In this document: positions 4,582 through 10,746 of the stretch, one piece after another
Layout: each line of letters opens with the position of its first letter
Numbering within the stretch: position 1 is the stretch's first letter
Virus record (IMG/VR): IMGVR_UViG_2660238360_000005
Origin: a virus
Taxonomy: Duplodnaviria; Heunggongvirae; Uroviricota; Caudoviricetes
Direction: 5' to 3' (one strand)
DNA: 12,652 nt
Program-made: the position numbers and the translations under genes
Notes under the pieces: generated by a model
What the model was told of the DNA's origin: nothing
Database searches by the model: none
Seen by the model: only the letters and a program-made list of their open reading frames with translations

Positions 4582-5148
4582 TATCGCGTCCTCAACAATG
4601 AATTTTGTGATGCAGTGCCTGGTGCCTCCAGGTGACGTTAACCAGTTAACAATTAACGCCGGATACAGAGAATCCACCCATAACACTGTTTTTGGTTTTA
4701 ACTGTTCCGCGTGCGCTCAGCCGCATTCACCACATCACAAAATTCACTTTAAAAAGGGCGGCAGAGCAGTCACGGAGTAAAACTGATACCGCCAAACGTC
4801 ACCAGAAAATTGATAACAGAGGGCGTTGCAGCGGGGTTGTCACTTAAGCGTATGGTCAACCTGACAACCCGGTGTCCTCAACGGGGAAGAAATAACCCCG
4901 CCATACTTACCGCCGCACCATTTCGCGGGTTGCCACAACCGGAAGCGCACGGTCGACGAAAATTTAACGACAGGCTATCTATGAACCAGCTACCTCGCCG
5001 TGCGCTTTCGCGTTATGGTCTGACTTTTCAGGGAAATATCCTTTCAGTAAACTGTCAGTGCCGGATGCTCACCCGTGTCCGGCGCACGCACTCCACCTCA
5101 CCCGTGGAGAACTCCTTAATTACCAACCTTAGCTTCGTTGGTTAGCTA

Positions 5149-5682: not shown

Positions 5683-5861
5683 GCTGACCTCATTTCCCCT
5701 TAACGCCGGGGTAGCGGAACAAAAACCTGCTGCATAGTTATTAAAGTTGAACCCTGCCGTCATGTTCTTACGCCTCGGGCTGGCTACTTAACCCCTGACC
5801 ACTGCCTGGTAACTCGAAGTATTGCCCTGCATTCTGTAGGATGGGGTGAGGGAATGAATGA

Positions 5862-5909
5862 AGTTTAGAAAGACGAACTTTCCAGGTCAATGTTTTTTTA
5901 TCAAAACAT
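5862..5909 (-). promoter_or_regulatory. Putative leftward early promoter with adjacent operator-like palindrome
   Basis: On the minus strand TTGACC (plus 5885-5890), 17-nt spacer, TAAACT (plus 5862-5867). Immediately upstream is the palindrome ATGTTTT-N6-AAAACAT (5890-5909), matching the GTTTT-N6-AAAAC motif of the cI-cro operators. Confidence 0.4.
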
Positions 5910-5974
5910 TTTAAGCAGGCAGCTGTTAAGCCATCACCACGATGGCATACAGTTAATCAAATAGATGAGGTTGG

Positions 5975-6613
5975 TTAAATATCTTGTTGAATTTTAAAGC
6001 ATACGCCCAATATGCAAGATAGATCATCCAGCATAATTGAAGGGTAGCGAGGATTCGTGGGGACTAAAAGAATATCCGGCCCTTCTATCTCCAGTTTACG
6101 AATGACAGGTGTTGTGGTCCCTTTGGGTAAGGCAAGGACAATATTTCCTGGTTGTACGGTTCGATCGGGATCAACAAAAACTGTTGAACCATTTGGGATG
6201 GAAACTCCCCCACCAGATGTTGACATACTGTCACTCTCTAGAACAACTGCAAAGGTATTGACCGGGATTTCTCCGACAAGCTGCACACAAGAGGTTATTG
6301 AGGAATTTTTCATATAATCACTCCAGCTTGCTGCCTGCTGAAGTGATAGTAGCGGAACCGTTTTTATCGGCGGTAAAGATAGATCAAGCGAATCACCTGT
6401 ATTTAACTCTCCTCCATTAAGAAGCCAATTTTCGTTTACTTTCAATATTTTTGCCAGTGAACTTATGTAACGCGAGGACGGCGCTCCTCCACCGTTCATC
6501 CATTGACTTACGGAGCCTTTTGATGCGCCAGTGCCATTGACAAGGTCTTTGCCTTTCAGGTTTAGCGCATGCATACGTTGGGTTATGCGTTCAGATATAG
6601 TTTGCTTGCTCAT
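5975..6613 (-). CDS. CI-type prophage repressor (N-terminal XRE-type HTH, C-terminal S24 LexA-like peptidase)
   Basis: 212 aa. HTH segment ..LKGKDLVNGTGASKGSVSQWMNG..; C-terminal ..ESDSMSTSGGGVSIPNGSTVFVDPD.. (Ser) and ..PVIRKLEIEGPDILLVP.. (Lys) fit the S24 Ser/Lys dyad. Divergent from the cro-like gene. No SD upstream of the ATG, compatible with a leaderless PRM-type transcript. Confidence 0.9.
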   Translation of the reverse strand: MSKQTISERITQRMHALNLKGKDLVNGTGASKGSVSQWMNGGGAPSSRYISSLAKILKVNENWLLNGGELNTGDSLDLSLPPIKTVPLLSLQQAASWSDYMKNSSITSCVQLVGEIPVNTFAVVLESDSMSTSGGGVSIPNGSTVFVDPDRTVQPGNIVLALPKGTTTPVIRKLEIEGPDILLVPTNPRYPSIMLDDLSCILGVCFKIQQDI

Positions 6614-6676
6614 GTTTTGATTTTAAAACACAGATGGTTTTGTTTCTTGACTTTCTTTGGTTTTGATTATTAAACT
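6614..6676. promoter_or_regulatory. Divergent promoter-operator region with three operator-like sites at 23-bp phasing
   Basis: GTTTTGATTTTAAAAC (6614-6629), GTTTTGTTTCTTGAC (6637-6651) and GTTTTGATTATTAAAC (6660-6675) start exactly 23 bp apart. Rightward promoter candidate TTGACT (6647-6652), 18-nt spacer, TAAACT (6671-6676). Confidence 0.55.
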
Positions 6677-6704
6677 TTTGACGTTCAGTTTTATGGAGCG
6701 ACTC

Positions 6705-6935
6705 ATGAAAAAATCAGAAGTATTAGGCTATTTTGGCGGAGTTGTTAAAACAGCCGCAGCTCTAGGAACGTCAAAAACCACAGTCAGCATGTGGGGGGAA
6801 GAGGTTCCGTGGAAATGGGCGTTGCTAATTCAGGCAGTCACTGCCGGGGCGCTCAAATATGAGTTACACATACCGACGGTTGTCATTCCCGGTTCTGATC
6901 ATAATCCGCCTTCTAACCAAGGGGGGGATTCATGA
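6705..6935 (+). CDS. Cro/YdaS-like HTH regulator (76 aa)
   Basis: ATG at 6705 with GGAG 7 nt upstream; HTH-like segment GGVVKTAAALGTSKTTVSMW; divergent from the repressor; stop overlaps the next start (ATGA at 6932-6935). Confidence 0.8.
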   Translation: MKKSEVLGYFGGVVKTAAALGTSKTTVSMWGEEVPWKWALLIQAVTAGALKYELHIPTVVIPGSDHNPPSNQGGDS

Positions 6936-7357
6936 AAATCAAGCATGAACACATCCGCATGGCGATGAATGCCTGGGCGCATCCGGACGGCGAAAAAGTA
7001 CCGGCTGCGAAAATTACCAAAGCGTATTTCGAGCTGGGAATGACGTTCCCGGAACTGTATGACGACAGCCATCCGGAAGCCCTGGCTCGCAATACCCAGA
7101 AAATTTTCCGCTGGGTAGAGAAAGACACCCCTGATGCAGTTGAAAAAATTCAGGCGTTGTTACCAGCGATCGAAAAGGCAATGCCACCTTTGCTGGTGGC
7201 CAGAATGCGCAGCCACAGTTCAGCTTATTTTCGGGAGCTGGTGGAGACGCGGGAGCGACTGGTGAGAGACGCTGATGATTTTGTCGCAGTGGCAATCGCC
7301 GGTTTCAATCAGATGAACCGTGGTGGCCCGGCAGGAAATGCTGTGGCAGTACATTGA
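6932..7357 (+). CDS. CII/YdaT-like regulatory protein (141 aa)
   Basis: N-terminus MKIKHEHI.. as I recall for YdaT/phage CII-family proteins; translationally coupled to the upstream cro-like gene, matching the racR | ydaS-ydaT layout of Rac-like prophages. Confidence 0.7.
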   Translation: MKIKHEHIRMAMNAWAHPDGEKVPAAKITKAYFELGMTFPELYDDSHPEALARNTQKIFRWVEKDTPDAVEKIQALLPAIEKAMPPLLVARMRSHSSAYFRELVETRERLVRDADDFVAVAIAGFNQMNRGGPAGNAVAVH

Positions 7358-10567: not shown

Positions 10568-10624
10568 GACTGCGGGTGCTTGAGGCTATCTGTCTCAGGC
10601 ATGAACACCAAAAGGCAGATAGAG

Positions 10625-10692
10625 AAAAGCCCCAGTTAACATTACGCGTCCTGCAAGACGCTTAACATTAATCTGAGGCCATATCTATGCGA
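10625..10692 (-). ncRNA. sok: Putative Sok-like antisense RNA (boundaries approximate)
   Basis: Minus-strand promoter-like TTGACC (plus 10724-10729), 18-nt spacer, TAATCT (plus 10700-10705) inside the mok-like frame would start an antisense transcript near 10692 covering the mok-like start and leader, as in hok/sok loci. 3' end not defined. Confidence 0.3.
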
Positions 10693-10746
10693 CACATAGA
10701 GATTAGCCTCTTACGGACCGAAAGGTCAAGGAGAAGCAGGCTATGA
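10687..10746 (+). CDS. mok-like short coupling ORF (19 codons)
   Basis: ATG 10687; its TGA stop (10744-10746) overlaps the hok ATG (10743-10745). Much shorter than the mok frame as I recall it from plasmid R1, so the assignment is tentative. Confidence 0.35.
   Translation: MRHIEISLLRTERSRRSRL

Follow-up and report, generated by a model that had tools for sequence, protein, structure and literature searches.

A probable lambdoid cI/Cro immunity switch in a widespread Escherichia coli prophage, with predicted operators at 23-bp phasing

Genes and promoters of the switch region

We analysed a window of 12,652 nucleotides from a tailed phage. Its identity to phage vB_EcoS-640R1 amounts to 99.8%, and this phage is a complete lambdoid prophage adjoining potC. 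Of 5426 complete E. coli genomes, 1042 (~19%) contain the switch region of the window, O157:H7 strains among them. Very probably the region decides between lysis and lysogeny as the immunity switch of a lambdoid prophage, which is integrated beside potC in E. coli. The repressor gene cI and cro are divergent and are separated by a spacer of 91 bp (Table 1). The gene that follows cro, in the place of 'cII', encodes YdaT, 87% identical to the CP-933P protein, and the leftward operon consists of a ydfA-like gene, ydfC, dicF, dicB, a recE-like gene, xis and int. An earlier note made from the DNA alone had read the region as a cI/Cro switch with OR and OL operators, and this reading is supported in that it agrees with every in silico test applied here.

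Table 1. Coordinates of genes, promoter elements and predicted operators in the window
Feature	Position	Strand	Sequence	Basis and remarks
PL -10	5862..5867	-	TAAACT	promoter scan; kept across haplotypes while its spacer varies
Possible weak PL-proximal operator, uncertain	5863..5878		GTTCGTCTTTCTAAAC (read on - strand)	
PL -35	5885..5890	-	TTGACC	promoter scan; TTGACT in diverged lineages; 17-bp spacer
Predicted OL operator	5890-5909		ATGTTTT-TTTATC-AAAACAT	20-bp palindrome, 7-nt arms
cI repressor, LexA-type, 212 aa	5975..6613	-		ORF; HTH_3 N-terminal, Peptidase_S24 (PF00717) C-terminal
Predicted operator, OR3 position (cI start/PRM)	6614-6629		GTTTTGATTTTAAAAC	perfect GTTTT-N6-AAAAC arms
Candidate PRM -10	6620..6625	-	TAAAAT	sequence; invariant in all haplotypes
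Middle site, OR2 position, half-site only	6637-6652		left arm GTTTTGTT	right arm TGACT = PR -35
Weak PRM -35	6648..6643	-	AAGAAA	sequence
PR -35	6647..6652	+	TTGACT	promoter scan; identical in PR933P and P22 PR
Predicted PR-proximal operator, OR1 position	6660-6675		GTTTTGATTATTAAAC	one mismatch
PR -10	6671..6676	+	TAAACT	promoter scan; 18-bp spacer; hexamers and spacer length as in PR933P
cro, 76 aa, P22_Cro family	6705..6935	+		SD GGAG at 6695-6698

Comparison of cI with structures in the PDB gave matches to lambda cI and to the N-terminal domains of the 434 and P22 repressors. Ser129 and Lys173 of cI align with lambda Ser149 and Lys192, and Ala94-Ala95 is aligned to the lambda cleavage site; as lambda has Ala111-Gly112 at this position, the inducibility of cI is not certain. 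Deletions in the linker occur naturally in two cI variants. The Cro protein matches Pfam PF14549 (E = 9e-16, 57.8 bits vs a cutoff of 30.2) over its residues 2-53, corresponding to profile positions 1-52 of 60, and aligns from residue 1 with the P22 Cro structure 1rzs (E = 2e-8). An alternative cro start, ATG 6693, is lost in two lineages through an A to C change. A BLASTP comparison of the cI N-terminal domain with Cro gave no alignment. By eye only, a local G-x-S-K-x-x-V-S-x-W match can be seen between the recognition-helix regions of cI and Cro.

Rightward transcription from PR is inferred to start at about 6681-6683. The -35 hexamers of PR and PRM lie back to back at 6643-6652. A consensus promoter scan did not call PRM and instead called a leftward TTAACA-18-AATACT inside cro (6748..6719). 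Within the spacer itself, no good leftward -10 other than TAAAAT is present.

Predicted operators and their conservation

The earlier note had described three operators between cI and cro, sharing GTTTT-N6-(A/T)AAC arms at an exact phasing of 23 bp. The phasing proved exact, the GTTTT arms starting at 6614, 6637 and 6660, and in composition-matched shuffles of the 91-bp spacer three GTTTT words in arithmetic progression at a spacing of 18-26 bp occurred with a frequency of 2.6e-4. The shared arms were recovered for the first and third sites and not for the middle one, which lacks the right arm, and their register was one base off, as both full sites fit GTTTT-N6-(A/T)AAAC and not the shorter form. 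The 'three operators' are really two full sites and one half-site, all of them predicted, and the ideal operator would be the 16-bp GTTTTGAT-ATCAAAAC. With respect to the cI ATG at 6613, the sites are centred at -8.5, -31.5 and -54.5; with respect to the inferred PR start, the third and the middle site are centred at -15.5 and -38.5. Together they overlap the PR -35, the PR -10 and the candidate PRM -10, and the right arm TAAAC of the third site coincides with bases 1-5 of the PR -10. The only full operators in the spacer thus sit on the PRM -10 and the PR -10, 46 bp apart. A fourth phased site at 6683 (GTTCAGTTTTATGGAG) matched the consensus too poorly to be claimed.

Perfect copies of GTTTT-N6-AAAAC were seen twice in the window against 0.016 expected, at 6614-6629 and in the core of the OL palindrome (5892-5907, GTTTTTTTATCAAAAC), thus on both flanks of cI, and no further perfect copy was present in 50 kb of the vB_EcoS-640R1 record. 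When up to two mismatches were allowed, the motif was not enriched in the window (15 found vs 10.6 expected), and therefore only near-perfect copies carry weight.

We then compared polymorphism within and outside the sites using 64 haplotypes, among them lineages in which cI identity is as low as 84%. Variable positions in the cI-cro spacer amounted to 1/48 within the sites vs 17/43 outside (p = 6e-6), and the depletion persisted when the promoter hexamers were excluded (p = 5e-4). The single variable position falls in 6614-6629, while 6637-6652 and 6660-6675 are invariant across all haplotypes.

The middle site reads GTTTT-GTTTCT-TGACT, with a right arm that matches AAAAC at 1/5 positions and is itself the PR -35, and it is possible, though rather unlikely, that cI and Cro bind to no sites other than the OL palindrome and the two full ones of the spacer. 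In that case the middle site would be the shared -35 region of PR and PRM, and its GTTTT and the phasing would be a by-product of T-rich upstream DNA. Binding of a dimer to the middle site would mask the PRM -35, which is hard to square with activation, and the invariance of the block could instead reflect the two back-to-back -35 elements, from which it would also be expected. However, the exact 23/23 phasing is rare by chance, the 8-mer TGGTTTTG occurs exactly at 6635 and 6658 and nowhere else in the window, and the invariant block runs 10 bp upstream of the -35 hexamer. A degenerate and recognisable middle site is also present at the same offset in P22 (OR2) and in phage 733R5 (25 bp from the first site, 2 mismatches), and in CP-933P half-conserved repeats lie between full ones inside the footprinted region (PMC8630535; PMC9986795). 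These observations argue for a predicted half-site at the OR2 position that may take part in repressor binding.

On the other side of cI, the earlier note had placed the same motif in a longer palindrome next to a leftward promoter whose -10 is identical to that of the rightward one. Both statements hold: the 20-bp palindrome with its 7-nt arms adjoins PL (TTGACC-17-TAAACT, 5890..5862), and the two -10 hexamers are TAAACT. The palindrome has its centre at -44.5 relative to the inferred PL start, an A following a C at ~5855, and the base with which it ends also serves as the first T of the -35. It also forms a conserved island, 3/20 of its positions being variable vs 23/41 in its flanks (p = 0.003). 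The possible PL-proximal site has the same register to the PL -10 as the PR-proximal site has to the PR -10, and in one diverged lineage (L006) it reads GTTTGTTTTTCTAAAC, which is nearer to the consensus. Beyond the -10 itself just 3 arm bases match, which is weak support, and the site carries 3 mismatches and lies 29 bp, not 23 bp, from the palindrome. We therefore count one strong predicted OL site and regard a second one as doubtful. Further OL sites 23 bp on either side of the palindrome were considered and rejected for their poor match to the consensus. The conserved PL leader (5764-5856, minus strand), examined as a put-like or nut-like RNA, folded no better than its shuffles (z = 0.72), and the region from the cI stop codon to OL was energetically unremarkable (z = -0.73).

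Start of the repressor gene and its promoter

The ATG at 6613 is the sole in-frame start of cI upstream of Met14, and the start could be assigned to it by the codon phase of the polymorphism. In codons 2-13, upstream of the alternative starts, 6/7 SNPs fall in third codon positions (p = 0.007); over codons 2-100 the count is 45/68 (p = 3e-8), and the excess reaches codon 2. This shows that cI translation starts at ATG 6613. As the earlier note had stated, the first operator directly abuts this start codon (site from 6614, ATG 6613..6611) and no Shine-Dalgarno sequence precedes it, the 19 nt upstream (TGTGTTTTAAAATCAAAAC) being free of any SD-like purine run.

Annotation has suffered from this arrangement. 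The gene is annotated as just the C-terminal 112 aa in the two RefSeq genomes examined and as 199 aa in a GenBank phage record, a systematic shortening that we attribute to the repressor start without SD and that leaves the DNA-binding domain unannotated in those records. The O157 strains do not have a truncated cI: their ORF is complete, and the shorter CDS stems from the annotation.

Between the candidate PRM -10 and the A of the ATG lie the 6 nt CAAAAC, with a C at -1 and an A at +1, which implies, by analogy with mapped promoters, that the cI transcript is probably leaderless and starts at the A of the ATG. The proposal of a leaderless transcript in the earlier note is strengthened by the codon-phase start together with TAAAAT 6 nt upstream, and the locus probably adds to the known leaderless repressor genes of phages. 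It is quite improbable, in our assessment, that cI lacks an SD and yet is transcribed with a leader, either from a promoter further upstream or mainly as a YdaT-activated PRE-type transcript running antisense across cro, with an AU-rich leader (UUUUAAAAUCAAAAC) supporting SD-independent initiation. An absent SD alone is no proof of a leaderless transcript, the PRM -35 (AAGAAA) is poor, the consensus scan passed over PRM in favour of the hexamers in cro, and CP-933P has a YdaT-activated PRE (PMC8630535; PMC9986795) and a YdaT closely related to the one encoded here. On the other hand, the sole good leftward -10 of the spacer is invariant and lies at exactly 6 nt from the ATG, the same geometry has been mapped by 5' RACE for paaR2 of CP-933P (PMC8630535; PMC9986795), and in P22 and 733R5, too, the first operator lies so close to the ATG that a leader would not fit in between. 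The site through which YdaT would act is also damaged: the only near match to TTGATT-N6-AATCAA, at the cro/ydaT junction (6925-6942, 2 mismatches), where CP-933P carries the YdaT OM site, has lost its left arm and reads GGGATT instead of TTGATT.

Working of the switch and comparison with known systems

In a lysogen, cI dimers would occupy 6660-6675, overlapping the PR spacer and -10, and the adjacent half-site over the PR -35 may be filled by cI through protein-protein contacts. PR would thereby be blocked, keeping cro, ydaT and the replication genes off, and cI on the OL palindrome, touching the PL -35, would keep the leftward operon off; this repression may be aided by the weak site that overlaps the PL -10 and by a loop of 722 bp between OL and OR. 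The repressor itself would be made from the weak PRM, whose -10 lies inside 6614-6629, as a leaderless mRNA from the A of the ATG, and excess cI, or Cro after induction, would bind 6614-6629 and turn PRM off. RecA-stimulated self-cleavage of cI (Ser129/Lys173) would free PR and PL, after which Cro would take over the operators used by cI, probably beginning with the perfect palindrome over PRM, and lock in lytic growth.

Both lambda and P22 share parts of this design. As in lambda, cI and cro are divergent, the three sites between them are spaced by 23-24 bp and the middle one is weaker, a second operator cluster lies at PL beyond cI, and an S24 repressor, possibly self-cleaving here, has a start codon without SD. 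Relative to PR, the lambda sites lie at about -17, -41 and -64, and those described here at about -16, -39 and -62, so that the positions at -15.5 and -38.5 are lambda-like and unlike P22. In contrast to lambda, the distance from the sites to the cI start is shorter by 10 bp, the single strong OL site is located upstream of the PL -35, rexAB and N are absent, PL drives a dicF/dicB-type operon, and CII is replaced by YdaT. P22 has a Cro of the same P22_Cro family, and its C2 repressor is ~27.5% identical to cI over 96% of the length. Its OR3 abuts the c2 ATG in the same way as the first operator abuts the cI ATG, its site centres are at -9.5, -34.5 and -57.5 (site spacing 23-25 bp), and its PR shares the -35 TTGACT. 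Its operators, however, are 18 bp long with an ATTTAAG-N4-CTTAAAT-like consensus, as opposed to the 16-bp GTTTT-N6-AAAAC, its PR is ~12 bp closer to c2, with OR1 over the start site and OR2 over the spacer, and c1 lies downstream of cro in the place taken here by YdaT.

Given transcription from 6613, the middle site centred at -31.5 covers the PRM -35 and does not touch it from near -42, and lambda-type activation from that position therefore does not fit. Lambda-style activation of PRM cannot be assumed from the sequence, and the PRM geometry resembles P22 and not lambda. The best palindrome in the spacer lies on cI's own promoter and not on PR, which is the reverse of the cI affinities expected from a naive analogy with lambda. 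It is tempting to speculate, unlikely as we consider it, that the switch works without lambda-type activation, through tight negative autoregulation and relief of polymerase competition between PR and PRM once PR is blocked, with the OL palindrome upstream of the PL -35 serving mainly for looping to OR and less for simple occlusion. If true, an activation-free switch could be a family-wide design distinct from lambda, since P22 and 733R5 share the site offsets.

A close parallel in promoter design is the immunity region of CP-933P, with PaaR2, YdaS and YdaT (Jurenas et al. 2021, PMC8630535; Prolic-Kalinsek et al. 2023, PMC9986795). There, PR933P and PL933P have been mapped and are repressed by their own repressor and Cro in reporter assays, paaR2 is leaderless by 5' RACE (GATAAT-TACCAC-ATG), and YdaT has been shown to be a CII analogue (PMC8630535; PMC9986795). 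The PR design is identical in both (TTGACT-18-TAAACT), the PL hexamers are the same, TAAACT serves both as the -10 and as an operator arm, the -10-to-ATG distance is 6 nt in both paaR2 and cI, half-conserved palindromes lie in alternation with the full ones over PRM and PR, and the PL-downstream leader and dicB operon are homologous. The regulators differ: PaaR2 is a 15 kDa protein, annotated as a 123-aa hypothetical protein, whereas the repressor here has an S24 domain, the paaA2-parE2 toxin-antitoxin genes follow PaaR2, and YdaS is unrelated to Cro, giving no alignment. The operators differ in word and spacing as well, those of CP-933P being 18-bp palindromes of the GTTTAGTAA type that have been called equally spaced (PMC8630535; PMC9986795), at about 19-20 bp as read by us from the sequence. 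The locus does not belong to the CP-933P immunity type, with which it shares YdaT and the promoter hexamers alone, and the conserved flanks around a differing repressor, Cro and operators indicate that the immunity cassette (about 5855-6931) has been swapped.

That the repeats are not repressor operators and are chance features of AT-rich promoter DNA or sites of another protein such as YdaT is hardly credible: YdaT half-sites (TTGATT) are indeed embedded at 6617-6622 and 6663-6668, TATCAA (5/6 to AATCAA) lies inside OL, and the motif loses its enrichment at up to two mismatches, but the sites contain no TTGATT-N6-AATCAA inverted repeat (the best in the switch, 6657-6674, has 3 mismatches), YdaT has no effect on PRM, PR or PL in CP-933P (PMC8630535; PMC9986795), and both the two perfect 10-position matches at the promoters flanking cI and the depletion of polymorphism specifically in the sites point to operators.

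Altogether, the switch is judged on these comparisons to be genuine, widespread and of a familiar lambdoid kind, leaving the current picture of lambdoid switches unchanged, and its specificity has apparently not been characterised previously. In the searchable literature we found no paper with the exact operator sequence and, under the potB/CFT073 prophage or the phage name, no characterisation of the immunity type; on leaderless transcripts in P22, nothing but the CP-933P paper was retrieved. This immunity type is present in roughly a fifth of the complete E. coli genomes, and the switch presumably governs prophage induction and a leftward operon with the cell-division inhibitors DicF and DicB. 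With the predicted operator word and the cassette boundaries, sequence-based prediction of immunity groups and of cross-immunity becomes possible.

Searches for relatives of cI yielded none in a scan of species-representative genomes, only loci 98-100% identical in a scan of viral contigs, and only matches at least 72% identical in a protein search. As these relatives are too close for an analysis of operator/recognition-helix co-variation within the family, polymorphism footprinting and the heterologous relatives P22, 733R5 and CP-933P were used in its place. Among the phages of the collection, the closest relative of a heterologous kind is Escherichia phage vB_EcoS-733R5, whose Cro and cI are 53% and 30% identical, respectively. 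In 733R5 a perfect palindrome abuts the cI ATG, followed by the degenerate second site and by a third 23 bp further on, and PL has the -35 TTGACC with operators on both sides. The operator word of 733R5 is GTAAC-N4-GTTAC (14 bp), and its three clear OL sites compare with the one strong site described here, both sets being predicted. The geometry of a middle site over the PRM -35 is common to P22 (-34.5), 733R5 and the present locus.

Operators and promoters of the cI-cro region

The cI-cro region is, as judged from its sequence, a genuine lambdoid immunity switch, an interpretation of the earlier note that the genes, the sites, the promoter positions and the conservation all support. Perfect copies of GTTTT-N6-AAAAC occur twice in the window (5892-5907 and 6614-6629), against 0.016 expected from base composition, and these two are the sole perfect copies in 50 kb of phage record; the PR-proximal site carries one mismatch. 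The OL copy widens into a 20-bp palindrome (ATGTTTT-N6-AAAACAT), the longer palindrome reported by the earlier note near the leftward promoter, and in the promoter scan the PL and PR -10 hexamers are the same, as it had stated. Its site coordinates and 23-bp phasing were likewise confirmed: GTTTT begins at 6614, 6637 and 6660, an arithmetic progression that shuffling the 91-bp spacer at matched composition yields with a frequency of 2.6e-4. The claim of three operators with shared arms holds for the first and third sites, and is overstated for the middle one (GTTTT-GTTTCT-TGACT), whose right arm matches at one of five positions and coincides with the PR -35. The '(A/T)AAC' arm register proposed for these sites was off by one base at sites 1 and 3. 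Viewed as half-sites, every operator combines an ideal half, GTTTTGAT, always on the cI-ward side, with a weaker half.

Features of the switch region and its surroundings (window coordinates)
Feature	Position	Strand	Description
cI	5975-6613	-	ORF of 212 aa: HTH N-terminal, S24 peptidase C-terminal
cro	6705-6935	+	P22_Cro family
ydaT	6932-7357		Next gene after cro; PDB 3c4r match, E = 2e-90, all 141 residues
Site 1	6614-6629		OR3 position, at cI start
Middle site	6637-6652		OR2 position
PR-proximal site	6660-6675		OR1 position
OL palindrome	5890-5909		At PL
PR	6647-6676	+	TTGACT-18-TAAACT, promoter scan
PL	5890..5862	-	TTGACC-17-TAAACT, promoter scan
Promoter-like sequence	6748..6719	-	TTAACA-18-AATACT, inside cro 5' end
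Hairpin	5930-5946		GCCATC-ACCAC-GATGGC, between cI stop codon and OL
Direct repeat	6588-6599, 6682-6693		CGTTCAGATATA / CGTTCAGTTTTA, 94 bp apart; cI codons 5-9 / cro leader start
DicF sRNA	4756-4807	-	Rfam; within leftward PL operon, upstream of dicB
sok antitoxin RNA	10574-10745	+	Rfam; hok/sok-type module, rightward region

Conservation was assessed in 86 related loci, which gave 64 haplotypes and reached down to 84% cI identity and 82% regional DNA identity. Only 1 of 48 spacer positions inside the three sites varies, compared with 17 of 43 outside them (Fisher p = 6e-6), and the depletion persisted when promoter hexamers were dropped from both classes (p = 5e-4). Variation clusters in three places: 6632-6635, which separates site 1 from the middle site; 6679-6683, around the start of PR; and the bases immediately ahead of the cro ATG. 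Conserved islands at PL comprise both hexamers (-10 and -35) and the 20-bp palindrome, set among variable flanks and a variable promoter spacer (3/20 variable positions versus 23/41, p = 0.003). In one diverged lineage the OL right arm has become TAAAC, the arm at the PR-proximal site, and the PL spacer has become GTTTGTTTTTCTAAAC, nearer to the operator consensus; there are thus slight hints, from thin evidence, of a second, weak OL site over the PL -10.

Several smaller features were also noted. The related locus L056 and two similar loci lack one T of the T-run in the OL palindrome (at the equivalent of 5893), so that 5 rather than 6 bp separate the arms, and OL may be weakened in such prophages if spacing matters for binding. 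The stem of the hairpin is invariant in the 64 haplotypes, its four variable positions all lying in the loop; it does not stand out in folding energy (z = -0.73), and it is no canonical terminator, since no T-run follows it on either strand. The leader motif GTTCAGTTTT is also invariant between variable flanks and may represent either a leader element or another weak half-site. The promoter-like sequence within cro may have arisen by chance, or may drive PRE-like or antisense transcription through OR and on into cI.

Start codons and products of cI and cro

Annotated cI proteins begin at one of three positions. The 212-aa form comes from most gene callers (802 members in the cluster of that length), the GenBank phage record ON470612 gives 199 aa from 6574, and RefSeq, despite the intact 212-aa ORF, gives only the C-terminal 112 aa from ATG 6313 behind an internal GGAG, as checked in two RefSeq genomes (99.9% and 97.7% identity over the region). 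In codons 2-13, upstream of both shorter starts, six of seven SNPs fall in the third codon position of the long frame (p = 0.007), as do 45 of 68 across codons 2-100 (p = 3e-8). The HTH profile requires residues from about position 10, and alignments with the N-terminal domains of the 434 and P22 repressors begin at residues 1-6. Together, these observations identify ATG 6613 as the cI start. The HTH domain is left unannotated in the RefSeq and ON470612 records, and public annotation falls short of the full repressor (L092 426-764, L003 1626-1964 and L001 6276-6875 among the related loci).

ATG 6613 is directly preceded by site 1, in agreement with the earlier observation that the first operator abuts the cI ATG without a Shine-Dalgarno sequence. 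The minus strand reads TAAAAT-CAAAAC-ATG: exactly 6 nt separate a good -10 from the A of the ATG, position -1 is C and +1 is A, and no haplotype varies here; the candidate PRM -35, AAGAAA, is weak, as expected for a maintenance promoter. In the cryptic prophage CP-933P, the 5' RACE end of the paaR2 transcript is the A of the ATG, and its translation has been shown. The sequence upstream of paaR2, GATAAT-TACCAC-ATG, has the same -10-to-ATG spacing as cI. A leaderless cI mRNA is predicted by analogy and is well supported by this geometry.

GenBank and RefSeq start cro at ATG 6693 (80 aa). Two lineages have CTG in its place, and P22 Cro aligns from the Met encoded at 6705, with GGAG 6 nt upstream, which makes the 76-aa form more likely.

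The alignment of cI with lambda cI spans the catalytic Ser and Lys (here Ser129/Lys173). No repressor of another type in the phage collection exceeds 30% identity to it, and it therefore represents a distinct immunity specificity. This specificity is apparently uncharacterised, and no publication on the operator sequence or immunity type was found in the searchable literature, whose coverage is incomplete. The lambda Ala111-Gly112 cleavage site aligns to Ala94-Ala95 (about 6329-6334). Two natural cI variants from metagenome and ENA contigs (P0007 and P0008) have lost the linker through 25- and 34-residue deletions and may be non-inducible.

Comparison with related switches

With PR transcription inferred to begin at about 6683, the site centres lie at -15.5, -38.5 and -61.5 from that point, similar to those of lambda; measured from the cI start they lie at -8.5, -31.5 and -54.5, about 10 bp nearer than in lambda. 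Lambda-style PRM activation relies on repressor contact from -42. Such contact is excluded by the predicted layout, because the PRM -35 lies within the middle site. P22 has a similar layout relative to the repressor start: OR3 (AGTTAAGTCATCTTAAAT) adjoins the c2 ATG, the centres lie at -9.5, -34.5 and -57.5, and the PR -35 is the same TTGACT. Escherichia phage vB_EcoS-733R5, the nearest heterologous relative (Cro 53%, cI 30% identity), has a different operator word, GTAAC-N4-GTTAC (7 matches versus 0.85 expected), with a mismatch-free copy adjoining the cI ATG, a two-mismatch copy 25 bp on and a one-mismatch copy after another 23 bp; around its PL (-35 TTGACC) there are three copies. From the P22 and 733R5 layouts we therefore infer a design common to the P22-Cro-type group, in which operator 1 sits on the repressor start and its -10, the middle site is degenerate and the third lies on PR.

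CP-933P shares with the window the PR and PL hexamers, YdaT (87% identity) and the DNA left of the PL -10, whereas its Cro is unrelated and its repressor, PaaR2, is of another type. Homology to this heteroimmune prophage covers ~5764-5850 and 6932-7357 (locus L091, 2600-2700 and 810-1235), with unrelated sequence between, placing the cassette limits at about 5855 and 6931. This stretch would roughly constitute an exchangeable immunity cassette of the usual lambdoid mosaicism. CP-933P YdaT acts as a CII analogue (PMC8630535; PMC9986795). At the cro/ydaT junction, GGGATTCATGAAAATCAA (6925-6942) is the counterpart of the footprinted CP-933P YdaT OM site TTGATT-CATGAA-AATCAA; its left arm, which falls in the exchanged 3' end of cro, is missing. 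A PRE that depends on YdaT may hence be weaker in this phage or be located elsewhere.

Proposed mechanism and distribution of the prophage

The genes, the sites, their overlap with the promoters, their conservation and the cI start codon are the parts of the mechanism established at sequence level. In a lysogen, cI on the PR-proximal site, together with putative cooperative binding at the middle half-site, would block PR, and cI on the OL palindrome would turn off PL and hence dicF/dicB, recombination and excision functions. The final base of this palindrome doubles as the initial T of the PL -35; repression from an OL site centred at -44.5 could involve a steric clash at the -35, a putative weak partner site over the -10, or a loop spanning the 722 bp to OR. 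Of PRM and PR, it is PRM that carries the best palindrome. Excess cI or Cro on site 1 would shut off cI synthesis, since this site covers the PRM -10 and start. Upon induction, RecA-stimulated cleavage would lift repression and allow Cro to take over.

Of 5426 complete E. coli genomes, 1042 carry an 871-bp core (5850-6720), nearly all at 97% identity or more; in the phage collection it is present in just three records. For this prophage type, which ~19% of complete E. coli genomes contain, the analysis provides an operator word, the limits of the immunity cassette, a revised annotation of the repressor and a repressor gene that is probably leaderless. Positions 5700-7000 are 99.8% identical to Escherichia phage vB_EcoS-640R1, whose record is a complete lambdoid prophage adjoining potC, with the order int, xis, recE-like exonuclease, ydfD, dicB, ydfC, DUF1391 (ydfA-like), cI, cro, 'cII' and an O-like gene, continuing to Q, lysis, head and tail genes.
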